DNA of 40,667 nucleotides from a virus. The stretch is taken from UHGV virus genome UHGV-1991486. One strand, 5' to 3'. Shown piece by piece: positions 8,277 to 38,053 of this stretch. The stretch's first letter is position 1; the number at the start of each line of letters is the position of its first letter. The position numbers and the translations under genes are program-made. Below the pieces are notes generated by a model. The model was not told the DNA's origin. It made no database searches and worked only from the letters and a program-made list of their open reading frames with translations.

Positions 8277-8575
8277 GGTGTGATACAGAAGTTTTCTTTC
8301 AGTCGATCGTACCTGGGGAGTATGACGAAGCTACTGGGGATTATGGAGATGATATAGTCTCAGAAGAGAAAATATACGCCAGTGTGACAGATACCGGCAC
8401 AGAGACAATGAACCTTGTATACGGATCCATAAAGCAGGGAAGCAAGACGGTGCGGATACAGACGCATTACAAAAAACCGTTTGATCGTATTCGGATAGGA
8501 AACGCCTTATACAGAGTGGATTTTGAGCGGAAACTTCGAACAAAGCATGTGTTTGTGGTGTCGGAGGTGCAGTGA
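8273..8575 (+). CDS. Head closure / head-tail adaptor (SPP1 gp16-like).
   Basis: 100 aa, overlapping start with the upstream gene. Position and size fit. Confidence 0.6.
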   Translation: MRCDTEVFFQSIVPGEYDEATGDYGDDIVSEEKIYASVTDTGTETMNLVYGSIKQGSKTVRIQTHYKKPFDRIRIGNALYRVDFERKLRTKHVFVVSEVQ

Positions 8576-8910
8576 TGGCAGGTATTAAATTTAAAGGAAT
8601 CGCAAAGCTGGATAAAGGTTTGAAGAAAAGAATGGATCTGAATGCAGTTAAGACAGTTGTCCGAAAAAACGGAGCTGATATGCAAGCAAAATCACAGAGA
8701 AATGCGCCGGTTGATACCGGGACTTTGAAGCGGAGTATAGGTCTTGATTTGTCAGATAATGGGATGACTGCGACTGTGGAACCTACTGCGGAGTATGCTC
8801 CATATGTGGAACTCGGAACACGATTCATGGAAGCGCAGCCGTATTTAAAACCCGCATTTGAGGAGCAGAAGAAACAGTTTGAAAAAGATTTGCAAAAGCT
8901 TGTGAGGTGA
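8572..8910 (+). CDS. HK97 gp10-family tail component.
   Basis: 'NAPVDTGTLKRSI...YAPYVELGTRFM' motif of the HK97 gp10 family. Confidence 0.75.
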   Translation: MMAGIKFKGIAKLDKGLKKRMDLNAVKTVVRKNGADMQAKSQRNAPVDTGTLKRSIGLDLSDNGMTATVEPTAEYAPYVELGTRFMEAQPYLKPAFEEQKKQFEKDLQKLVR

Positions 8911-20739: not shown

Positions 20740-22272
20740 TTATTTCGGCACTTTCGGGTACACATCGATTGTAAATTCAGAGTTTTTCTGGTTTTTCTTG
20801 TTCCGTTTCGTCTTAGTCAGAACAATCCTGTCAATCAGCTGTCTCAAGGCGCTGTTCTTTTCCGAGACAGTCAGAGAGTCCCACTCACTCAATAAATTCT
20901 TGCACTTCGGCACAAAATTCTTCCGGTTTGCCTGTCTTGCGATTGTGGTATGCAAATCTTCACGGGCAGCAGTGATGTTATTCATGCAGTCTCTGATCCG
21001 CTGCTCAAGCGCATTCGAACGCTCAATAAAAATTTCTTTTGTGTAAATTCCCTGCTCTAAAAAATCAAATAAGGATTCTCTCTGTTTCAAAAGCGTCTGA
21101 TGTTCAGTCTCAAAATTTGTGACGATCAATTCTTTTGCGGCAATCGCGGCAGTATCTTCCTCGTGAGTGTCAGCAAATTCATATTTGGCTATGTAGTCTT
21201 TCAGCCACCCCAGAAGAGCTTCTTCCAGTTCATCGATCCGGATCCCGACTGTGGAGCACTCCGCATACTGGCATATCAGCATATCATAGGGTGTTTTTGT
21301 TTGTGCTTTCTTACGGACCATAAGCCGGCCGCATTGTGAGCATCTGACCAGACCTGCAAACAGATTCTGTATCGGTCTGTCGCTTCTAACTGGAGCAGAA
21401 AAACATCCTTTTGGTTGGTTCGCGCGTTTAAATAAGTCTGCACTGATCCGTGGTGCCCATGCCGCATCTGAGAGGATGTAATCTGTGGCTTTTGGGCGGG
21501 ACTTTACCACACGACCATCTTTTACAGCTCTAACAGTCTTACGATGCCCCCAGCGGACTTTGCCGATGTTTGCCGGATTCGATATGATCCCTTTTAAAGT
21601 GGAGGGTGTAAAAGGCTTTCCGCTCCTTGCAAGGATTCCCATATTGGTCATATAGGTGCAGGCTTTTTGGTATCCGTACTGCTTATTTCCGCACAGATCA
21701 TACATTAGATCAAGGACGGGTGCTTCTGTCTGATGTGGGGCGAGAGAGTAGTGTTTTCCATCCGGCGCAATGACGCGCTCCCATCCATAAGGGGCAACAT
21801 TGCCAACGTAATAACCATCAGAACTGGAACGTTCCCTGCCACGCTGCATCCGGCGCTTGATTGTGGCGTATTCCCGGCGGCTCATAAATAAACTGAACTC
21901 AAAGTACTCATTATCATACTCATTTGCAGGATCGTAGGTTTTATTCGGTGTTACAATCCGGGTGTTGGAATAAAAAAATGCACGCTGCACACGTCCCTGA
22001 TCGATCGTATCACCTCTGGCCAGACGATCCACGTCCATTACGAGGGCACCATCCCACATACAGGCTTCTACCTCGGATAGGACTTGCGTCATGACTGGAC
22101 GGGCATCAATACTGTCTCCAGACACAACTTCTCTGTAAATTGCACCGATCGGAAGAGAGAGCGTCTTTGCCAACTCTAACAGGGTAGTAATGTGTCGTTC
22201 CAGAACATCAATCCCCAGTGCTTCCAGTTCGGCGTCTTTTCTGGATTTTCTAGCATAGATAAAATAAGACAT
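20740..22272 (-). CDS. int: Large serine recombinase (integrase).
   Basis: N-terminal resolvase catalytic domain ('YARKSRKD', 'SGDSIDARP', 'LVMDVDRLARG'), recombinase domain, and a zinc-ribbon ('CSQCGRLM...CQYAEC'). 510 aa. Confidence 0.9.
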   Translation of the reverse strand: MSYFIYARKSRKDAELEALGIDVLERHITTLLELAKTLSLPIGAIYREVVSGDSIDARPVMTQVLSEVEACMWDGALVMDVDRLARGDTIDQGRVQRAFFYSNTRIVTPNKTYDPANEYDNEYFEFSLFMSRREYATIKRRMQRGRERSSSDGYYVGNVAPYGWERVIAPDGKHYSLAPHQTEAPVLDLMYDLCGNKQYGYQKACTYMTNMGILARSGKPFTPSTLKGIISNPANIGKVRWGHRKTVRAVKDGRVVKSRPKATDYILSDAAWAPRISADLFKRANQPKGCFSAPVRSDRPIQNLFAGLVRCSQCGRLMVRKKAQTKTPYDMLICQYAECSTVGIRIDELEEALLGWLKDYIAKYEFADTHEEDTAAIAAKELIVTNFETEHQTLLKQRESLFDFLEQGIYTKEIFIERSNALEQRIRDCMNNITAAREDLHTTIARQANRKNFVPKCKNLLSEWDSLTVSEKNSALRQLIDRIVLTKTKRNKKNQKNSEFTIDVYPKVPK

Positions 22273-27236: not shown

Positions 27237-27421
27237 TGTATGTAGGTATCGGACCGGAGAAAGACACGGTAGTAACAGAAGATCGGGCGTTTGAATATGC
27301 GCTGGAAAGATGCTTACACGGGACACCGGATGAACGGGAAGAGTTTAAAGAGATGCTGGTGGAATGGTTTTACTCCGGTAATTGGGTACATGAAGAAAGT
27401 GAGGAATCTTGCAATGCTTAA
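27233..27421 (+). CDS. Hypothetical protein (62 aa).
   Basis: ATGA overlap with the upstream ORF. Confidence 0.35.
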   Translation: MMYVGIGPEKDTVVTEDRAFEYALERCLHGTPDEREEFKEMLVEWFYSGNWVHEESEESCNA

Positions 27422-28034
27422 AAGCTATGGAGAAATGAGAAAAGTAGATGTGAAACCATATCTTGAAAAAAGAGATGGCATGGATTACTTAAACTGGGCG
27501 ATGTGCATTGATTTATTGCACAAAAACGGCGCTGAAAATGTTTATTTTACACCGATTCCAGATCCAGAAACAGGAAGTAGCTTAAGAATGACAAAGGCAG
27601 TGTTTAAAGACAAAAACGGAAACGAAAACAGGTGTTATGAAACCAGAATCCGTGTTGTTATAGACGATGAAGTATATGAGATGCAAACACCTGTGATGAA
27701 TGGGGCAAACCCTGTAAAAGACAACTCTATGAGTCAGCAAAGAGTCTGGAACAGCATGTGCAGGGCGTTTGTGAAGTGCGTAGCAATACATACCGGCTTA
27801 GGGTTCGATTTGTGGCTTAAAGAGGAATACAACAAGATGTATGCTCAAATACCGGAAACGGGGGAAAACAGAGCGTCTGAAGCGAAAATCAAGACTCTCA
27901 AGAATCTATGCGTATCTCACGGCATCAATCTTGAACGATGGTTGAGAGAAAACAATAGGACTGAGCAGACACTTACCGAGACAGAAGCTGCAACAATGTT
28001 AAGCACAATAAAAAGGACTTACGGTGATGATTGA
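27414..28034 (+). CDS. Sak/RAD52-like single-strand annealing protein (DUF1071-like).
   Basis: 'DYLNWAMCIDLL...' and 'QQRVWNSMCRAFVKCVAIHTGLGFDLW' resemble Sak/RAD52-type motifs. Start taken at ATG 27414, in frame within the track ORF 27291..28034. Confidence 0.55.
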   Translation: MLKSYGEMRKVDVKPYLEKRDGMDYLNWAMCIDLLHKNGAENVYFTPIPDPETGSSLRMTKAVFKDKNGNENRCYETRIRVVIDDEVYEMQTPVMNGANPVKDNSMSQQRVWNSMCRAFVKCVAIHTGLGFDLWLKEEYNKMYAQIPETGENRASEAKIKTLKNLCVSHGINLERWLRENNRTEQTLTETEAATMLSTIKRTYGDD

Positions 28035-29063: not shown

Positions 29064-29474
29064 ATGATAATTACAATTCCGGGAAAACCCGTCGGAAAAG
29101 CAAGACCGAGATTCCACAGAGCCGGATTTAAGGTCATTACATACACGCCACCAGAAACCAAGAAGTACGAAAAAGAAGTTGCGAGGATTTATAAACAAAG
29201 CGCAGGTGTTCTTTATGCAGAGATACCTCTGAGAGTTCGTATTTTAGCGAAATTTCCGATTCCAGAGAGCTGGTCTAAGAAGAATAAGGAGAAAGCTTTA
29301 AAAGGCGAAATAAAGCCGAATAAAAAGCCAGACTTAGACAACATTGCAAAAATCATTCTGGATGGACTGAACGGAGTCGCATACATCGATGATAAGCAGG
29401 TGACCAGTCTGGAGATTGAAAAAGTGTACTCGGATACACCTTGCGTGGTGGTCTATATTGCGGAGGATGAGTAA
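29064..29474 (+). CDS. rusA: RusA Holliday-junction resolvase.
   Basis: 'PGKPVGKARPRF' and 'KPDLDNIAKIILDGLNGVAYIDDKQV' are classic RusA motifs. Confidence 0.9.
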   Translation: MIITIPGKPVGKARPRFHRAGFKVITYTPPETKKYEKEVARIYKQSAGVLYAEIPLRVRILAKFPIPESWSKKNKEKALKGEIKPNKKPDLDNIAKIILDGLNGVAYIDDKQVTSLEIEKVYSDTPCVVVYIAEDE

Positions 29475-31777: not shown

Positions 31778-32662
31778 ATGGATAAAGAGAAAAAAGCAAT
31801 CGAAAGAATTAAAATGGCAAGTGAAATGAGTCTACATCACTATGGTAGACCGCTTGTTTGTACGTATAGCGGCGGCAAGGATAGTGATGTGATGTTAGAG
31901 ATTTTTAAGCGATCCGGAATCCCGTTTGAAGTGCATAACAGCCATACAACGGCAGACGCACCACAGACCGTATACCATATCAAAGAAGTATTAAAAAAAA
32001 CGGAATTACAAGGAATTAAATGCGAAATCGAAATGCCAACATACAAAGGAAAACCAACAAGTATGTGGAAATTGATACCACAAAAGTTAATGCCACCGAC
32101 TAGACGGGTAAGATACTGTTGCTCTGTCTTGAAAGAGACGGGATGCCAAAATAGATACATCGCAACAGGAGTAAGGTGGGATGAATCGAATAAAAGAGCG
32201 GAAAGAGGAGAATTTGAAAAGCTTGGGAAAAACTACAATGAGAATGAGACTTTTTCTACTATTATGCTTATGAGCGATAACGGATCAAAGAGACGAATGG
32301 GTGAGCTTTGTATGCAACAGAATAAAATGGTTGTAAATCCAATTATCGACTGGACGCATTCAGATATTTGGCAGTACATAGAATCAGAACATATAGAAGT
32401 ATGCGATTTGTACAAACGTGGATATGATCGTGCTGGCTGTATCGGATGTCCTATGGCAGGCAAGAAGCGTTACAAAGAGTTTGCGGATTTTCCAAAGTAT
32501 AAGCAATTGTATATAAATGCTTTCGACAGGATGTTGAAAGAACGTAAACGAAGAGGAAAAGAATGTAAGTGGACGACAGGGGAAGAGGTATTTTTTTGGT
32601 GGATGGAGGATGAAAACATACCAGGGCAGATGAGTATAGAAGACTTTATTACGGAGGAATGA
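31778..32662 (+). CDS. PAPS-reductase-family (PP-loop ATP pyrophosphatase) protein, IbrA/DndC-like.
   Basis: PP-loop 'TYSGGKDSDVM'. C-terminal Cys cluster 'CIGCPMAGKKRYKEF'. 294 aa. Confidence 0.8.
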   Translation: MDKEKKAIERIKMASEMSLHHYGRPLVCTYSGGKDSDVMLEIFKRSGIPFEVHNSHTTADAPQTVYHIKEVLKKTELQGIKCEIEMPTYKGKPTSMWKLIPQKLMPPTRRVRYCCSVLKETGCQNRYIATGVRWDESNKRAERGEFEKLGKNYNENETFSTIMLMSDNGSKRRMGELCMQQNKMVVNPIIDWTHSDIWQYIESEHIEVCDLYKRGYDRAGCIGCPMAGKKRYKEFADFPKYKQLYINAFDRMLKERKRRGKECKWTTGEEVFFWWMEDENIPGQMSIEDFITEE

Positions 32663-32665
32663 CTA

Positions 32666-33067
32666 ATGGCGAAAACAGAAGAAACATGGATGGACGGGAT
32701 CACAACAGAAATGATGGAGCATATATGCGACAACCTGTGCAGGTATCCAGATCAGCTAAGTGAAATGGAACTGGAAGATAAACGCGCAGAGTGCAAGATG
32801 GGACGGTTTGTGTGCGATATTTTGAACCAGTATAACAAGGTGAATGATTTTGTGGACAGCCAGTGTGCGAAGTTGATGAATCAGATGCATGAGTTGAAAG
32901 AGCGTGATACGGCGAAAAAGCCAGAAGAAGTAGACTATGAATTAGGTTATTTCGTTTGCCCAAGTTGCAGAGAGTCAATATGTTTTATTGATGGACATGC
33001 AGAAGAGCACGAATGCTGTCTGAAGTGCGGCCAGAGATTAGATTTCGGAGGTTTAAATGAAATTTGA
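32666..33067 (+). CDS. Cys-rich hypothetical protein with a C-terminal zinc-ribbon.
   Basis: 'CPSCRES...CCLKCGQRL'. Confidence 0.45.
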   Translation: MAKTEETWMDGITTEMMEHICDNLCRYPDQLSEMELEDKRAECKMGRFVCDILNQYNKVNDFVDSQCAKLMNQMHELKERDTAKKPEEVDYELGYFVCPSCRESICFIDGHAEEHECCLKCGQRLDFGGLNEI

Positions 33068-33530
33068 AAACGCATGTAACTGCATAGTAGATTATTCAAT
33101 TTTAGAAAAAGCAATAGAAGAAGAATGCAGTAGAAGAAATATTACACCTAAAGAGGAATATAAAATTTATCTTTATCGTGGGTATGCTGGAATTTCGATA
33201 AAGCATGACAAAGTGTCGGTACACAGGATAATTGGTAAACATATTGTTGGATTCAATTTTGGTTCAGAAATTCATGTTCACCATATTGATGGAGATAAAT
33301 TAAATAATAATATTTCTAATCTTCAAGTAATTAAAAAATCATTACACACGAAAGAACATAATTTAGTTCAATATGTTTCAGAAGAATATAAAAGAAGTTT
33401 TGGAGATAGGATGAAGCATATTGTTTCAAGAAGTGATGTTGCAAAAGAAGATGTGATTTTTCTTAGAAATAAGGGATTAACAATCAATCAAATCGCTGAA
33501 AAACTAGTGTACTGTATTGTTGACATTTAA
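33057..33530 (+). CDS. HNH endonuclease. Its native 3' end is replaced by IS630 inverted-repeat sequence.
   Basis: 'VHHIDGDKLNNNISNLQVI...HTKEH' HNH motif. AT-rich. The last 8 codons (VYCIVDI*) are encoded by the IS left inverted repeat. Confidence 0.75.
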   Translation: MKFENACNCIVDYSILEKAIEEECSRRNITPKEEYKIYLYRGYAGISIKHDKVSVHRIIGKHIVGFNFGSEIHVHHIDGDKLNNNISNLQVIKKSLHTKEHNLVQYVSEEYKRSFGDRMKHIVSRSDVAKEDVIFLRNKGLTINQIAEKLVYCIVDI

Positions 33531-33584: not shown

Positions 33585-34103
33585 GTGATTTATATGGCAA
33601 GACCAAGAAAATATGTCATTAAACTTACAGATGATGAATTGAAGACATTAAAATCTATAATTCGCAAAAGTAATACATCTAAAACTATTCGAAGCAGATG
33701 CCAGATTATTATTGATTTGGATGAGGCTCATGGGAAAGTATTAACCCATGAGCAATCCGCAAGATCAAATGGTGTTTGCCTGACAACTGTAACGAATACA
33801 GTGACCAAATATTTTTCCGGTGGCATTGAAGCGGTTACCGAGTTCAAAAGAAATATCAATTCCGACAATGCAAGGCGTATCCTTGATGGACGTGCAGAAG
33901 CACGTATTATTGAACTTGCCTGCGGTCCTGTTCCAGAAGGTCATTCCAGATGGACTTTGCGTCTGCTGGAAAAAGAAGCCAAAGTAGTGCTTGATACACC
34001 GGTTAGCAAAGATGCTATCCGTAGAGCCTTAAAAAAAACAAACTTCGACCTCACAAAAATGAATACTGGTGCATTCCCTCAAGAGAGGACGCAGAATTTA
34101 TAG
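33585..34103 (+). CDS. IS630-family transposase OrfA (HTH DNA-binding part).
   Basis: HTH-rich 172 aa. Ends after the A8 run. Confidence 0.8.
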   Translation: MIYMARPRKYVIKLTDDELKTLKSIIRKSNTSKTIRSRCQIIIDLDEAHGKVLTHEQSARSNGVCLTTVTNTVTKYFSGGIEAVTEFKRNINSDNARRILDGRAEARIIELACGPVPEGHSRWTLRLLEKEAKVVLDTPVSKDAIRRALKKTNFDLTKMNTGAFPQERTQNL

Positions 34104-34108
34104 CTTGT

Positions 34109-34744
34109 ATGGAGGATGTTCTCGATGTATACGAACTTCCATATAACCCACAACGCCCCGTTGTTTGTATGGATGAAAAACCATATCAGTTACTTGGCGA
34201 GGCAAGATCCCCACTTCCTATGCGCCCCGGCAATGACCAGAAAGTAGATTCTGAGTATGTCAGAAATGGTACATGCAGCATCTTTGCATTCGTAGAACCG
34301 CTTGGTGGAGCTCATCATGTAAGTGTTCGGGAACATCGGACTGCAATTGACTGGGCAGAAGAAATCAAATATCTTGCCGATGTCATGTATCCAGATGTAG
34401 AAAAAATAATTCTTGTAATGGATAATCTTAATACACATAAACCAGCATCATTGTACAAACGTTACCCTGCTGATGAAGCCAGAAGAATCATGAAACGGTT
34501 GGAGATTCACTACACACCAAAACATGGCAGCTGGCTTGATATTGCAGAAATCGAACTTAACGTCATGACCAGACAATGTTTGAACAGAAGGATTGATAAT
34601 ATTTCAAATCTTCGTAAGGAATTATCAGCATGGGAAGTTGAACGAAATACCGTAGCCGCAAAGGTAAACTGGCAATTTCGAACGGAGGATGCAAGAATTA
34701 AATTGAATTCCTTGTATCCGACATTTACTACTGCATCTGAATAA
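34109..34744 (+). CDS. IS630-family transposase OrfB (DDE catalytic domain). The -1 frame is open from 34025.
   Basis: 'VMDNLNTHK...HYTPKHGSWLDIAEIELNVM' DDE_3 signature. Confidence 0.85.
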   Translation: MEDVLDVYELPYNPQRPVVCMDEKPYQLLGEARSPLPMRPGNDQKVDSEYVRNGTCSIFAFVEPLGGAHHVSVREHRTAIDWAEEIKYLADVMYPDVEKIILVMDNLNTHKPASLYKRYPADEARRIMKRLEIHYTPKHGSWLDIAEIELNVMTRQCLNRRIDNISNLRKELSAWEVERNTVAAKVNWQFRTEDARIKLNSLYPTFTTASE

Positions 34745-34848
34745 GATGCAGTAGTAATGTTAAATATCAACGATACAGCACACTAGACTGTGGGTATAAC
34801 ACTGTTTGTAGAAGATTAGGAATGCGTAATTAGATTGGAGTGAGTAAC

Positions 34849-35028
34849 ATGGGAGAATTAAAGAAATGTCCGTTTTGTGGTGGAGAAGCGACAATGAAAA
34901 TCCATTATGGATTTGACGAAAAAGTTATATCAGCTTTCGTGTACTGCGAAGAATGCGGAGTCGCAACGCGAAGATGTGCTTTAGAAACAACTGCTATAGG
35001 GAAATGGAACAGGAGGGTGGAAGAATGA
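34849..35028 (+). CDS. Lar-family restriction-alleviation protein (zinc-ribbon).
   Basis: 'CPFCGGEATMKIHYGFDEKVISAFVYCEECGVATRRCALETTAIGKWNRR' matches the Lar family (CPFCGG...C..CG...A...WN.R). Confidence 0.75.
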   Translation: MGELKKCPFCGGEATMKIHYGFDEKVISAFVYCEECGVATRRCALETTAIGKWNRRVEE

Positions 35029-35180
35029 TTAAAGTAAAAGCGGAGGCAAATTATGGTTTTGCTGGAACAAATATGACATTTGAAGAAGAGTTTGGTGATG
35101 ATGTAACTGATGAGGAAATCGAAGAAGCTATGAGAGATATGGTTATGGAACAGGTTAATTGGTCATGGGAGAAAGAGTAA
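35025..35180 (+). CDS. Small acidic hypothetical protein (51 aa).
   Basis: RBS AGGAGGGTGG. ATGA overlap with the Lar gene. Confidence 0.3.
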   Translation: MIKVKAEANYGFAGTNMTFEEEFGDDVTDEEIEEAMRDMVMEQVNWSWEKE

Positions 35181-35182
35181 TT

Positions 35183-35629
35183 ATGAACAGAGAAATACTT
35201 TTTAAAGCAAAGAGAAAAGATAATGGAGAATGGGTGGAAGGGTATGTTGTTGCATATCCTTCTGGAAAAGTGGAAATACACAAAATTAGCAAAGAATTAC
35301 CAGATATATTACTAAAATGCGAGATTGCTCCAAGTACTTTATGCCAGTACACCGGACTTACCGACAAAAACGATAAGAAGATCTGGGAGAATGATATTCT
35401 CAGATATAGTTATGACTATGATGGAAGTCCGTTTTTAAAAGATGGCGAAGAGATAAAATATCGTGTAGGTGCTGTGTTTTGGAGCGAATGGAGGGGATCA
35501 TGGGCAGTATGTGGACGAGGAAATAAAAAATGCACCAATAACGATGTTTTTAAATATAATCGGAATCCAAATAGAACGGAAGTTATCGGAAACATTTTTG
35601 ACAATCCAGAGCTGTTGGAGGTGGAGTGA
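35183..35629 (+). CDS. YopX-family protein.
   Basis: 'MNREILFKAKRKDNGEWVEGYVV' is the typical YopX N-terminus. Confidence 0.8.
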   Translation: MNREILFKAKRKDNGEWVEGYVVAYPSGKVEIHKISKELPDILLKCEIAPSTLCQYTGLTDKNDKKIWENDILRYSYDYDGSPFLKDGEEIKYRVGAVFWSEWRGSWAVCGRGNKKCTNNDVFKYNRNPNRTEVIGNIFDNPELLEVE

Positions 35630-35802
35630 TGATTTTATTTTGCCCTGATTTAACGGGAAAAGAAGAGGTAAAAGCAATGTTTATTGGGAATGGAGATTTT
35701 GTCAGACCAGTGTTACATCCGTGCATTAAAGAGAAATGCATAGCGTACAAGGATGGAAAGTGCATGAAATACGATAATGAAGTGGAGGTAAAAGATGAAT
35801 AG
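35629..35802 (+). CDS. Cys-rich mini-protein (57 aa).
   Basis: ATG overlaps the YopX TGA. 'CPDL...HPCIKEKCIAYKDGKC'. Confidence 0.4.
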   Translation: MILFCPDLTGKEEVKAMFIGNGDFVRPVLHPCIKEKCIAYKDGKCMKYDNEVEVKDE

Positions 35803-35857
35803 AGAAATCCTTTTTAAAGCAAAGAGAATAGATAATGGTGATTTGGAGGTGGAGTGA
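35795..35857 (+). pseudogene. Duplicated 5' fragment of the yopX gene (20 codons) fused to the junction repeat.
   Basis: About 44 nt nearly identical to the YopX start at 35183 (about three mismatches), then the junction repeat and stop. Confidence 0.45.
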
Positions 35858-36009
35858 TGAAAAAATATGATATTTTAATTGCAAAATTGTATGCGTGCTG
35901 TGGAAATCAGGAAGAGTTTCCATGTGAGCCGATTACCATTGATACTAATAAAATGAGCGAGTTATTGGAAGGTGTATTTATAGAAGCGGGATTGTTGGAG
36001 GTAGAGTGA
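35857..36009 (+). CDS. Cys-containing mini-protein (50 aa) ending in LLEVE.
   Basis: TGATGA junction. 'LYACCGNQEEFPCEP'. Confidence 0.4.
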   Translation: MKKYDILIAKLYACCGNQEEFPCEPITIDTNKMSELLEGVFIEAGLLEVE

Positions 36010-36167
36010 TGAAAACAATAATTTACACAGTAGATGACGAAGAACCAGATTGCAATAGATGCGATCATTGTTGCGGCGAAGATTATTATTGTATCAAACA
36101 ATGTGGAGCAGAACATGGATGGAATGGATACGAAAGGTTAGAGAGAATTGAAAGTGATGAGGAGTAA
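36009..36167 (+). CDS. Cys-rich mini-protein (52 aa).
   Basis: 'PDCNRCDHCCGEDYYCIKQCG'. Confidence 0.4.
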   Translation: MKTIIYTVDDEEPDCNRCDHCCGEDYYCIKQCGAEHGWNGYERLERIESDEE

Positions 36168-36262
36168 CCATGTGGAAAATATCAACGATATCCAAAAAAG
36201 AATTATCCTGAGATGGATTTAATGGATAAAATCGAGGAACTAGAGTTGTTGGAGGCGTAGTA

Positions 36263-36379
36263 ATGAAAAAAGAGTGCATTAAATGCAAATATTATAAAAA
36301 CTACTATAAATCAACAGAATGTTATTGCGAAAAAGGTTATTGTGTTATGGATAAGAAAAATAGGAGACGAAATAAATGA
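36263..36379 (+). CDS. Cys-rich mini-protein (38 aa).
   Basis: 'CIKCKYYKNYYKSTECYCEKGYC'. ATGA overlap with the next gene. Confidence 0.35.
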   Translation: MKKECIKCKYYKNYYKSTECYCEKGYCVMDKKNRRRNK

Positions 36380-36765
36380 ACGTACTAGAGAAGATCTTGG
36401 AAGAGATTGAAGATCATGCGATAGAGTTTGAATCATTCGGAATGTGTGATGATTATGTGAGTATTAGATGGATAAAAGAAATCATTCGTTCCCACATGGA
36501 CGAAGTCCAGAAGTGCGGAGAATGCAGCCGAAGAAAATGGTATCAGAAAGGATATGAAGACAGCAAGAAAGACAATGACTGGATTCCTTACTCAGTACAA
36601 AATATGCCTAAGAAAGAAGATGTATATCTTGTAACGTGTGACGATGAAGAATATCCGGTAAAGAGAATGAGATTTAAAGAGGATTTATGGTACTGGACTT
36701 ACGGGATATATGACGGAAGAATTTTGGCGTATCAGTCGTTACCAGAACCATACAAGGAGGAATAA
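36376..36765 (+). CDS. DUF551-like phage protein.
   Basis: 'WIPYSVQNMP...YLVTCDDEEYPVKRMRF...AYQSLPEPYK' fits the DUF551 C-terminal pattern. Confidence 0.55.
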   Translation: MNVLEKILEEIEDHAIEFESFGMCDDYVSIRWIKEIIRSHMDEVQKCGECSRRKWYQKGYEDSKKDNDWIPYSVQNMPKKEDVYLVTCDDEEYPVKRMRFKEDLWYWTYGIYDGRILAYQSLPEPYKEE

Positions 36766-36766
36766 C

Positions 36767-36958
36767 ATGGACATTTTAATCACAATCGCATTCCTAGCCC
36801 TGTATTACATCCTGGGGCTTGGAACAGTGATTGCCCTAAAGACAGGATTGGAAGAGGATGTAAAACTAGAAGGTGCGGATTACCTGATGGCTGCGGGATT
36901 CCCGATACTGTTATTTGTGGTGTTTTTGGATTGGATCGTGCGAAAGATAGTGAGGTAG
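36767..36958 (+). CDS. Small two-transmembrane membrane protein.
   Basis: RBS AGGAGG upstream. Hydrophobic segments. Confidence 0.5.
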   Translation: MDILITIAFLALYYILGLGTVIALKTGLEEDVKLEGADYLMAAGFPILLFVVFLDWIVRKIVR

Positions 36959-36963
36959 AAAAT

Positions 36964-37572
36964 ATGAGAAAATTTAACTGGGACGAATTTAAGGATGCAG
37001 ATAATAAGATTGCAGTGCACTGCAAGACCGAGGAAGAGGCGAAAGACTTTTGCAAAAGAATGCATGAGCACGGGATGAAGTGGAGGGATGGAGAGAGTTA
37101 TTTAGAATGTACAGAATATGGAAAACATCTCAGTGAAACATGCTATACAGGATATGGTGAGTTCGCAAGTTACGATTTTTACAAAGAACGCGAATACAAA
37201 ATTTTAGAATGGAGCGATTACATGGACAAAGAATTTACCAAGGCAGATTTGGAAGATGGGATGGTAGTTGAACAAAAAAATGGAAACATGTATCTTGTAT
37301 TGGCTGGGAAGGCAGTAAGAAAAGGCAGATGCAATCGTATAGACGGTTACACTGATGACTTGAAATGGGAAGGTCGTACAGGTTATACAGGAGGAGACAT
37401 CGTTAAAGTCTATAGAATTACTCCGGAATCACTCGGATGCATAGAAGATGTGTTTATTAAAAGCAACCTTGAACTCATCTGGGAACGCACCGAATCGAAG
37501 AAAATGACTGTGGAAGAAATGAAACAGAAGCTGGAAGAACTGACAGGAGAGGAAATTGAGGTGACGGCATGA
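36964..37572 (+). CDS. Hypothetical protein (203 aa).
   Basis: Clean ORF, ATG 36964. Confidence 0.5.
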   Translation: MRKFNWDEFKDADNKIAVHCKTEEEAKDFCKRMHEHGMKWRDGESYLECTEYGKHLSETCYTGYGEFASYDFYKEREYKILEWSDYMDKEFTKADLEDGMVVEQKNGNMYLVLAGKAVRKGRCNRIDGYTDDLKWEGRTGYTGGDIVKVYRITPESLGCIEDVFIKSNLELIWERTESKKMTVEEMKQKLEELTGEEIEVTA

Positions 37573-37609
37573 CCAGAGAGACTATGAAACGCAGAAGGGA
37601 GAAGAAAAA

Positions 37610-38053
37610 ATGCTAATTGAAGATAAAGTACAGATAGAAGCAGTGAAAACAAGATCGTATATGATGGGTGAGATAGATGGAAAAGTGATGATTACGCAAG
37701 GTAGATATATTGTATTTGTGAAGAAAGAAGATTTCTTGCTCGACATAGATAAGCAGAAGAAATTGCCAGAAGATGGGGTGAAACATTTTTCCACAGAAAA
37801 TATTCAGAGCCAAATGAGGGCGGCCAAGTTGTCAAACAGAATGCTTACAACTGGCAAAAGCATTCTGAGAGCAATAAGAGACGAGACAACAGGGGGATAC
37901 GCTTGGTTTGATAATGAATATTTGAAAATGTTCGACGGATGCACGCCAAATCTTATTAAACACCCAGGAAACTCTGAATACTACAATGCCGTGTTTACAC
38001 GCTACGGAGAAATAATAGGCATCATACTTCCTGTGAGGGTGAGTGAATGGTGA
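37610..38053 (+). CDS. Hypothetical protein (147 aa).
   Basis: RBS GGGAGAAG upstream. Confidence 0.5.
   Translation: MLIEDKVQIEAVKTRSYMMGEIDGKVMITQGRYIVFVKKEDFLLDIDKQKKLPEDGVKHFSTENIQSQMRAAKLSNRMLTTGKSILRAIRDETTGGYAWFDNEYLKMFDGCTPNLIKHPGNSEYYNAVFTRYGEIIGIILPVRVSEW

Follow-up and report, generated by a model that had tools for sequence, protein, structure and literature searches.

The viral genome UHGV-1991486, a stretch of 40,667 nucleotides (nt) referred to as a whole as the window, carries an array of small genes that are linked, end to start, by a short recurrent sequence, called here the joint. The position of the array is between replication and late genes. A motif scan of the window with TTGGAGGYRKAGTRATGA gave four matches, at positions 35615, 35843, 35995 and 36249. 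The four joints, J1 to J4, are all on the + strand, are confined to 35615-36266 and are spaced by 228, 152 and 254 nt. Dinucleotide-preserving shuffles of the window (n=100) were used as the chance baseline; they gave a mean of 0.01 matches to TTGGAGGYRKAGTRATGA, and none of the 100 reached four. The original prediction had described four copies at irregular intervals, each made of the end of one open reading frame (ORF), a stop codon, a Shine-Dalgarno (SD) sequence and the overlapping ATG of the next ORF, and both descriptions hold at all four copies.

J1 (35615..35632, +) and J2 (35843..35860, +) are identical and read TTGGAGGTGGAGTGATGA. J3 (35995..36012, +) has one mismatch, a synonymous change of GTG to GTA, and J4 (36249..36266, +) has three. 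A repeat search extended the copy-to-copy similarity to about 25 nt, in the form GAG-(C/T)TG-TTGGAGGTGGAGTGATGA, and J1 in this extended form covers 35608-35632. When the sequence is read together with the ORF list, every copy has the same order of elements, with the L-E-V-E codons (L-E-A at J4) of the upstream ORF, its stop, GGAGG and the ATG. The ATG overlaps the preceding stop by one base at each joint (TGATG), which at J1 is the TGA that ends LEVE and the ATG of orf57. The distance from GGAGG to the ATG is 7 nt, and the SD is present in the extended form GGAGGTG, which is spelled by the last codons L-E-V-E themselves. By the textbook sequence for Firmicutes, GGAGGTG would pair with the 16S rRNA at its 3' end (CACCUCC). 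Among the 27 starts of the window with a GGAGG site, J1-J3 are pairwise 0-1 base apart, against about 10/18 for a typical pair.

J4 is a diverged copy, with LEA, a TAG stop and GGAGGCG before the ATG of orf38. By the 18-mer alone, its three mismatches tie it with a lookalike of no relation to the array, at 8561 among the head-tail genes. The gene upstream of J4 has a canonical joint in one related locus (L114; fetched loci are cited by such numbers), and orf38 sits behind a canonical joint in three others (L036, L043 and L073). J4 was counted in the family because of its extended 5' flank and of these homologues carrying the canonical motif. The lookalike itself, at 8561-8578, reads TCGGAGGTGCAGTGATGG and is placed where the stop of one head-tail gene overlaps the start of another; it probably arose by convergence, as a coupling signal made of an SD and TGATG, and gives a baseline for similarity made by translation. 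A second junction type, CAGGAGGGTGGAAGAATGA, loosely joint-like, was noticed at 35008-35028, between the two genes upstream of yopX.

The RNA folds of the four joints were no better than those of shuffled sequences (z -0.3 to -0.8) and gave no sign of structure that would hide the SD. The repeat search reported no inverted repeat or dyad symmetry at the joints. A promoter scan of 34700-37700 returned six sites against 10.2 expected, none of them at a joint, and no terminator-like site was found on the + strand in a scan of the same interval. An Rfam scan of 34500-37500 (E<=1) gave no known RNA family, only a single meaningless miRNA match. Because the joints have no promoter, terminator or RNA structure, the array is read as one polycistronic unit.

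The first gene with a joint is yopX (35183..35629, +), of 148 amino acids (aa), whose last codons, ELLEVE, form J1 together with the stop. Its product matches the YopX family PF09643 at 8e-18 (65.1 bits against a cutoff of 22.4), with residues 7-146 aligned to positions 2-128 of the 128 in the model. J1 leads into orf57 (35629..35802, +), a protein of 57 aa with 4 Cys and no family match, which was found behind the joint after five different upstream flank types. A 20-codon 'mini-yopX' (35795..35857, +) ends in J2, where orf50 (35857..36009, +; 50 aa) starts; this gene has a joint on both sides. Preceded by J3, the Cys-rich orf52 (36009..36167, +) shows an invariant CxxC...CxxxC pattern, and its homologues form 15 protein clusters in a set of 5.8 billion proteins, with the four Cys invariant. 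Between orf52 and J4 lies the remnant of a 71-aa gene (36170..36260, +), which includes a 15-aa ORF, MDLMDKIEELELLEA. J4 precedes orf38 (36263..36379, +), with 5 Cys in the pattern CxxC...CxC....C. The predicted ORF sizes of 15-57 aa were recovered in orf57, the 20-aa ORF, orf50, orf52, the 15-aa ORF and orf38. The description of these ORFs as mostly Cys-rich suits orf52, orf38 and orf57 but not orf50, where one of three Cys is changed to Arg in many relatives.

The ratio of nonsynonymous to synonymous polymorphism (pN/pS), obtained as a coarse star-like count against the window, was 0.13 for orf57, 0.14 for orf50, 0.07 for orf52 and 0.08 for orf38. With pN/pS within 0.07-0.19, these four are real genes, conserved by purifying selection, and genes of similar size are annotated at the same place in related isolates. 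Most searches of the cassettes with Pfam and PHROGs came back empty; the exceptions were one GIY-YIG family and weak matches to DUF7565 and DUF551. PADLOC gave no defence-system matches. An AlphaFold2 model of orf52 from a 12-sequence alignment reached a mean pLDDT of 52 and a pTM of 0.26, too poor for a fold search; because this model is unusable, metal binding is kept as a hypothesis, in which the four invariant Cys would form a zinc ribbon.

Flank combinations and homology breakpoints at the joint

Comparison of related phages was used to follow what stands on either side of the joint. In 95 unique contexts, 46 clusters of upstream flanks and 45 of downstream flanks were combined in 70 ways, and single clusters had up to seven partners. 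A larger set of 149 unique contexts gave 59 upstream and 57 downstream clusters in 96 combinations. The yopX gene of the window, traced at 96.7% identity or more over its last 150 nt, was found joined to five downstream gene families.

The edges of shared sequence fall at the edges of the joint. Counted from the start of the motif, pairs with only the upstream flank in common part at +18/+19 (median 19, n=135), and those with only the downstream flank in common become alike at -2 (median, n=150). The median identity of the shared flanks is 93-94%, and at least 97% is reached in 52 upstream and 38 downstream pairs; many exchanges would therefore be recent. Variable positions up to position 2 of the motif are linked with the upstream cluster, those from position 19 onward with the downstream cluster, and those at 7-14 with neither. 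Such a loss of linkage at positions 7-14 is the pattern expected if crossovers fall within the joint.

Loci were also sampled independently of the motif, by fetching them through the orf52 protein, the orf50 protein or the Lar gene that lies upstream of the array. The joint stood upstream in 36 of the 40 loci fetched with the orf52 protein. Among 40 loci fetched with the orf50 protein it stood upstream in 31 and downstream in 32, with varied neighbours on each side, and orf50 therefore behaves as a cassette. Loci anchored on Lar carried 0-3 joints each, with at least one joint in 27 of 38. In this Lar set a homology breakpoint was found at 88% of joint boundaries compared with 54% of other tight gene junctions; when restricted to unique contexts the values were 82% and 49% (nominal p=0.002). 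A map of breakpoints between the window and all fetched loci placed 32 at J1, 28 at J3, 22 at J2, 13 at the boundary of Lar with the DUF7167-like gene and 2 at J4, so that J1, J3 and J2 are the top three boundaries of the region. This map was treated as biased because most of the loci had been retrieved via the motif or the cassette genes, and the Lar set was relied on instead.

Individual relatives show what such exchanges could produce. Matches to cultured phages begin at window position 35617 (J1) for RG-TP1 and at 35845 (J2) for phiRgPS_6. One locus, L072, matches the 804 nt of the window that lead up to J1 with 100% identity, and the match resumes at J3, with the two alignments overlapping by the joint. 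When aligned in this way, L072 corresponds to the window minus exactly the J1-J3 interval, as predicted for an exchange between J1 and J3. Another locus, L049, has the permuted order joint-orf57-yopX-joint-orf52. The original prediction had proposed a recombination-driven shuffling system with the junction repeat as exchange site. Shuffling at the repeat is supported by the combinations, the breakpoints at the edges, the switch in linkage, the enrichment in the Lar set and L072; as for a system in the stricter sense, no sign of dedicated machinery or of a dedicated enzyme was seen.

The exact 18-mer was found in at least 118 viral contigs of IMG/VR, and nearly all of these copies are placed at '...LLEVE-stop / ATG...'. 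The genes upstream of the joint include many YopX proteins, down to 27-49% identical to that of the window, as well as an unrelated family ending in ...WLEITKE.LE.YFELLEVE, orf50 and orphan remnants of 4-24 codons. Downstream of it are 47 protein families with a median length of 72 aa, of which 14 have at least 4 Cys and most are without a family match. A search of other phage genomes with a table of the genes linked had been suggested beforehand, with confinement of the motif to this genome and ORFs lacking conservation named as the outcome that would speak against shuffling. The at least 118 contigs, the 96 flank combinations and the purifying selection on the small genes point the other way.

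Bacterial and archaeal genomes (596 gigabases) contained only 49 exact 18-mers, seven of which are YopX or cassette joints in Lachnospiraceae, Faecalimonas and other Clostridia. In four cellular loci from Proteobacteria and Myxococcota (L217, L229, L232 and L218) the exact 18-mer lies between a thiolase-like gene ending in ...GGLGAA.VLEVE and the next large gene, and these unrelated operons have converged on an identical coupling sequence. The unusual feature is the repeated use of the joint between unrelated genes in one phage group. The repeat is not described in two R. gnavus phage papers, in which YopX and mosaicism are also unmentioned, and keyword searches gave no description of it either; coverage of the literature was limited, and this absence is not proof of novelty.

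Deletion scars, neighbouring genes and the source phage

Two of the mini-ORFs in the array have a different history from that of the cassettes. The 20-aa ORF consists of the first 16 yopX codons followed by LEVE, and it is 87% identical to the 5' end of the adjacent yopX. L044 keeps an intact order of orf57-yopX-joint-orf50 and is 95% and 92% identical to the window on either side of the deletion. Relative to L044, the window has an in-frame internal deletion of about 390 base pairs (bp), in which the start, 16 codons and the joint were kept. The unit had been predicted to be a duplicate of the yopX 5' end; its 5' codons are indeed derived from a yopX, but the comparison with L044 indicates that it arose by internal deletion of a second yopX paralogue and is the scar of that gene, not a duplicate of the neighbouring one. 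The 71-aa gene before J4 is intact in four loci (L119, L047, L072 and L134). An internal deletion of 125 bp has shifted the frame of its remnant in the window, and the ends of the deletion share about 11 nt of microhomology. On these alignments, the 20-aa and 15-aa mini-ORFs are scars of deletions and not independent genes. Both scars retain the joint and hence the ribosome site of the next gene.

Upstream of the array are a Lar-family restriction-alleviation gene (34840..35028, +; Pfam PF14354, 1.3e-14) and a small DUF7167-like gene, phrog_1997 by profile matches (35025..35180, +). In L178, L191 and L201 the 3' end of Lar is joined directly to orf50 and not to the DUF7167 gene; with its 13 breakpoints, the Lar/DUF7167 boundary is a mosaic seam as well. 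The DUF7167-like gene is elsewhere a cassette behind the joint, where MIKVKAKANYGF follows the joint in L192 and L199. Downstream of the array, orf129 (36376..36765, +; phrog_15198, with DUF551-like relatives) starts in the window at an ordinary ATGA overlap, and belongs to an MNVLEKILEEI... group that is often found behind the joint in other contigs. Many otherwise unlike proteins behind the joint start with a common 11 residues, MN(V/A)LEKI(L/V)EEI, beyond which they differ until they become alike again at IIRSHM... and a DUF551-like C-terminus (for example in L052, L058, L060, L080, L099 and L186). Numerous intragenic homology breakpoints were seen at 36400-36750. The group looks like a family whose N-terminal domain is hypervariable and whose conserved 5' patch adds to the homology of the joint.

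By its sequence relationships, the window is assigned to a temperate siphophage of the Ruminococcus (Mediterraneibacter) gnavus type, from the Lachnospiraceae. The array region matches R. gnavus siphophages in patches at 87-95% identity, and the window also carries terminase, structural and lysis genes, an antirepressor and a replisome organiser. From the gene order, including a RinA activator in the isolates, the array would lie at the same place as the nin region of lambda. Cultured R. gnavus phages differ in their number of joints (at most four mismatches allowed), with two in phiRgPS_6 (L252), one in RG-TP1 (L253) and none in phiRgIBDN1 (L254).

Among the recombination functions of the window are a predicted Sak-type (Rad52-like) single-strand annealing protein (27291..28034, +; Pfam PF06378, 26.3 bits against a cutoff of 22.3) and a RusA Holliday-junction resolvase (29064..29474, +; Pfam PF05866, 7e-36). 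Related isolates encode Sak4 or Rad52-family proteins, NinB and NinG. Site-specific recombinases are represented in the window by a single gene, for a large serine recombinase (20740-22272, -), which lies in the lysogeny module, 13 kilobases (kb) from the array. An HNH_3 endonuclease gene (33057-33530) lies about 2 kb from the array and directly upstream of an insertion of the IS630 family (33585-34744), made of an HTH_32/HTH_29 ORF (33585-34103) and a DDE_3 ORF (34109-34744, 9e-24). The relatives seem to be without this IS630 element, because all matches to related phages begin at about 34829, just past it. A protein with a PAPS-reductase domain (PF01507, 8.7e-24) is encoded at 31778-32662, in the replication/accessory region. 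In L040, L189 and L191 the cassettes behind the joint include one for a GIY-YIG-domain protein. HNH and GIY-YIG nucleases could make breaks that stimulate local exchange.

A proposed seam for exchange and its alternatives

The explanation that was judged probable is that the joint, shared from gene to gene, is both a translational coupling signal and a seam for cassette exchange. Ribosomes terminating at the TGA would re-initiate at the overlapping ATG, aided by the strong SD. Because unrelated genes end in the same 18-25 nt, the joint would provide an identity patch for recombination of co-resident phages and prophages. The exchange would take place at this identity of 18-25 nt between replicating genomes, during co-infection or the infection of a lysogen, and the likely enzymes would be the phage's own Sak annealase (Rad52-like) and RusA. 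An exchange at one joint would swap everything downstream, an exchange at two joints would swap, insert or remove a single cassette, and an exchange between two joints of one genome would delete or permute the genes between them. Separately, illegitimate deletions would erode cassettes into scars that keep the joint and the next translation start. Rad52-like phage recombinases have been reported to drive mosaic formation and to act preferentially on short, diverged homologies (PMC3945230, PMC2327257).

The joint most likely began as one type of YopX 3' tail, which would have spread to other genes by exchanges within it. The Pfam YopX model aligns through ...ELLE, and NPELL is family-wide in YopX genes sampled by protein. 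The tails after NPELL vary (QEESDE, ESEE, QEEHK, EVE and others), and several of them also spell an SD. Only about 7 of the 64 YopX genes sampled in this way (about 11%) carry this joint, and the tails QEESDE, ESEE and QEEHK are commoner; the proposal that the joint is simply how YopX genes end was rejected on these counts.

Several points weigh against the seam explanation. Recombination is deduced from comparative patterns, not from observed events. Recombineering with lambda Red is efficient with roughly 30-50 nt, and the 18-25 nt of the joint are at the low end for annealases. RecET events at 5-13 bp, at a frequency of about 1e-8, are cited in PMC2327257. About 12-13 of the 18 positions are explicable by translation alone, through the 7-nt extended SD, the spacing and TGATG. 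Of the 49 cellular 18-mers, 42 are in unrelated contexts, many of them at stop/start overlaps, and the 18-mer can therefore arise alone as a coupling signal. Given the constraint of translation, the lookalike at 8561 and the copies in distant bacteria, selection could therefore keep the motif without any crossover there. About half of the non-joint junctions are also breakpoints and J4 hardly ever is one (2), and the joint is accordingly called a preferred seam and not the sole one. The two scars indicate that illegitimate deletion operates beside joint exchange. Many contigs are closely related, and most of them had been fetched by way of the motif or the cassette genes; the counts and p-values are therefore nominal, and the pairs are not events.

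Many of these points are what would be expected from selection only, in which the joint is an optimal coupling signal for the host, kept or re-created, and the shuffling is illegitimate anywhere and followed by selection for intact genes. This alternative, the foremost rival of the seam explanation, was considered unlikely. It would account for the three-mismatch lookalike between unrelated structural genes, for the cellular copies, for other YopX tail types that embed an SD in their last codons, for the 49-54% of non-joint junctions in the region that are breakpoints and for the illegitimate deletions documented there. It does not explain why the identity spans positions free of translational constraint (TT, GAG, the choice of L-E-V-E codons and the upstream LL codons), why unrelated proteins all end in LLEVE, or why orphan remnants as short as 4-13 codons still carry the joint. 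Homology also ends within a few bases of the joint on either side, polymorphisms within it show no linkage to the flanks, breakpoints are more frequent at joints than at other tight junctions, and L072 has the form of an exact J1xJ3 product. Another possibility, that the non-SD positions bind a phage or host factor (protein or RNA) which co-regulates the small genes, with recombination as a by-product, was held to be improbable. Translational operators are known, as for T4 RegA, and the conservation of non-SD positions across different gene families would suit one. Such a role was proposed for the Start-Associated Sequences (SAS) of Cluster K mycobacteriophages (PMC3203893), whose anatomy the joint parallels. 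No candidate factor was identified, however, the RNA folds of the joints show no structure, and the few and variable copies per genome (0-4) are a poor fit to a regulon. The flank combinations would require recombination in any case, and an operator is compatible with the seam explanation rather than exclusive of it.

The remaining two alternatives concern the origin of the copies and the enzyme that acts on them. Local paralogy, according to which the copies would be what is left of tandem duplications of the yopX 3' end in one lineage, with no role in exchange between phages, agrees with the derivation of both J1 and J2 from yopX (one intact, one deleted) and with the ...NPELLE ending of the YopX family. 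It was regarded as highly improbable, as the genes that end in J3 and J4 are not of the YopX family, the joint in other contigs comes after at least three unrelated gene families and before 47 protein families, and only about 11% of the sampled YopX genes carry it. An integron-like system, in which a dedicated recombinase would use the joint as its site for taking up and cutting out cassettes, is scarcely credible. The cassette arrangement with a short repeat at each cassette end recalls one, and the window does encode a large serine recombinase. The joint has neither dyad symmetry nor a hairpin, however, and the serine recombinase is 13 kb away in the lysogeny module, where the phage integrase is expected. 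Relatives with tyrosine integrases share the joint (phiRgPS_6 carries it, and PMC10072058 gives all six isolates a similar integrase of this type), and Pfam scans of the neighbouring genes found no recombinase gene adjoining the array.

A bolder extension of the seam explanation was also formulated and is doubtful. The joint would have been selected as a 'universal adaptor', at the centre of an integron-like but recombinase-light exchange of cassettes among phages of gut Clostridia. An annealase (Sak, Sak4 or Rad52-type), possibly helped by HNH or GIY-YIG breaks, would capture and reshuffle small accessory genes, likely for host takeover or anti-defence, at an 18-25-nt seam that ensures their translation, and the joint may double as a translational operator.

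Since Botstein, the debate on phage mosaicism has set homologous exchange at linkers against illegitimate recombination followed by selection, and clear linker cases are few. The joint is a sharply defined seam of 18-25 nt with many near-identical exchange products that would be recent, and one region would hold both processes side by side, in joint exchange and in the scars of illegitimate deletion. The question is directly testable in a culturable system, as the phages of R. gnavus ATCC 29149 have 0, 1 or 2 copies, and this difference in copy number makes the cultured R. gnavus phages natural partners for a recombination experiment. The joint can also be used as bait for the small accessory genes of gut Lachnospiraceae phages, with 47 families so far, mostly unannotated; small accessory genes are the class in which anti-defence and host-takeover functions usually occur. 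Annotation calls for some caution, as some of the mini-ORFs between joints are scars of deletions and not genes.

Comparison with known systems

Two types of array with short repeats were rejected on anatomy. CRISPR arrays have repeats of about 23-50 nt with regular non-coding spacers, whereas the joint has an 18-nt core (about 25 extended) and irregular coding intervals under purifying selection; no Cas domain was among the Pfam matches of the neighbouring genes, which were to Lar, YopX, DUFs, an IS630 transposase, HNH, Sak and RusA. The array had already been described as not CRISPR before this analysis, and that view stands. Integron cassettes resemble the array in being small promoterless genes with a recurring site at their ends, expressed as an array and shuffled, gained and lost unit by unit. 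The attC sites of integrons are imperfect inverted repeats that fold and are used by a dedicated tyrosine recombinase, whereas the joint has no symmetry or fold. With no attC-like hairpin, and no IntI-type tyrosine recombinase beside the array (the sole site-specific recombinase of the window is of the serine type), an integron array was rejected.

Botstein's modular theory reportedly placed conserved linkers or boundary sequences at module borders. In the lambdoid phages, short conserved sequences flank the modules and are proposed to serve their exchange (Clark 2001, on HK620, as cited in PMC2327257). As far as that account goes, the joint is like these linkers in being a short sequence common to dissimilar neighbours and a proposed guide of homologous module exchange in related temperate phages; across the related phages studied here, it is the sequence common to the border between otherwise unrelated flanks. 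The array would also correspond in place to the nin region of lambda, with its small, tightly packed genes between replication and late genes. Unlike the linkers as they are described there, the joint is not intergenic but is an overlapping gene end and start that doubles as SD and coupling signal, and it occurs up to four times per genome, flanks single small genes instead of large modules and belongs to phages of gut Clostridia.

The promoter-early stem-loop (PeSL) cassettes of T4-type phages (Arbiol et al. 2010, PMC2839356; PMC4122927) are likewise repeated expression signals between small, mostly ORFan genes in hyperplastic regions, where recombination between copies explains insertions, deletions and replacements among close relatives. 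The joint stands between small, mostly ORFan genes of a hypervariable region and marks the borders of insertions, deletions and replacements there, and each PeSL also runs from the upstream stop through the SD to the start of the next gene. A PeSL, however, consists of a sigma-70 promoter and a terminator stem-loop and is intergenic and transcriptional, while the joint has no promoter, terminator or stem-loop, is far shorter and lies within coding sequence. Mini-circles have been demonstrated for PeSLs.

An anatomical parallel is given by SAS (Pope et al. 2011, PMC3203893), a 13-bp asymmetric repeat with an SD core, located 3-7 bp before the ATG and sometimes including the upstream stop. SAS repeats occur in one orientation in the non-structural half of temperate siphophage genomes, before different gene families (PMC3203893), and the joint is similarly asymmetric, SD-bearing, limited to non-structural genes and in one orientation before various downstream families (47). 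The SAS consensus, 5'-GGGATAGGAGCCC, has only the GGAG core in common with the joint, TTGGAGGTGGAGTGATGA. There are 12-19 SAS copies per genome compared with 0-4 joints, and some SAS have an extended inverted repeat, which the joint does not. SAS were read as translation signals and were not demonstrated as mosaic breakpoints. The joint shares its logic with the linkers and PeSLs and its anatomy with SAS. What sets it apart from all of them is that it is a purely translational stop-SD-start seam which overlaps coding sequence and most likely comes from the 3' tail of a gene, in phages of gut Clostridia.

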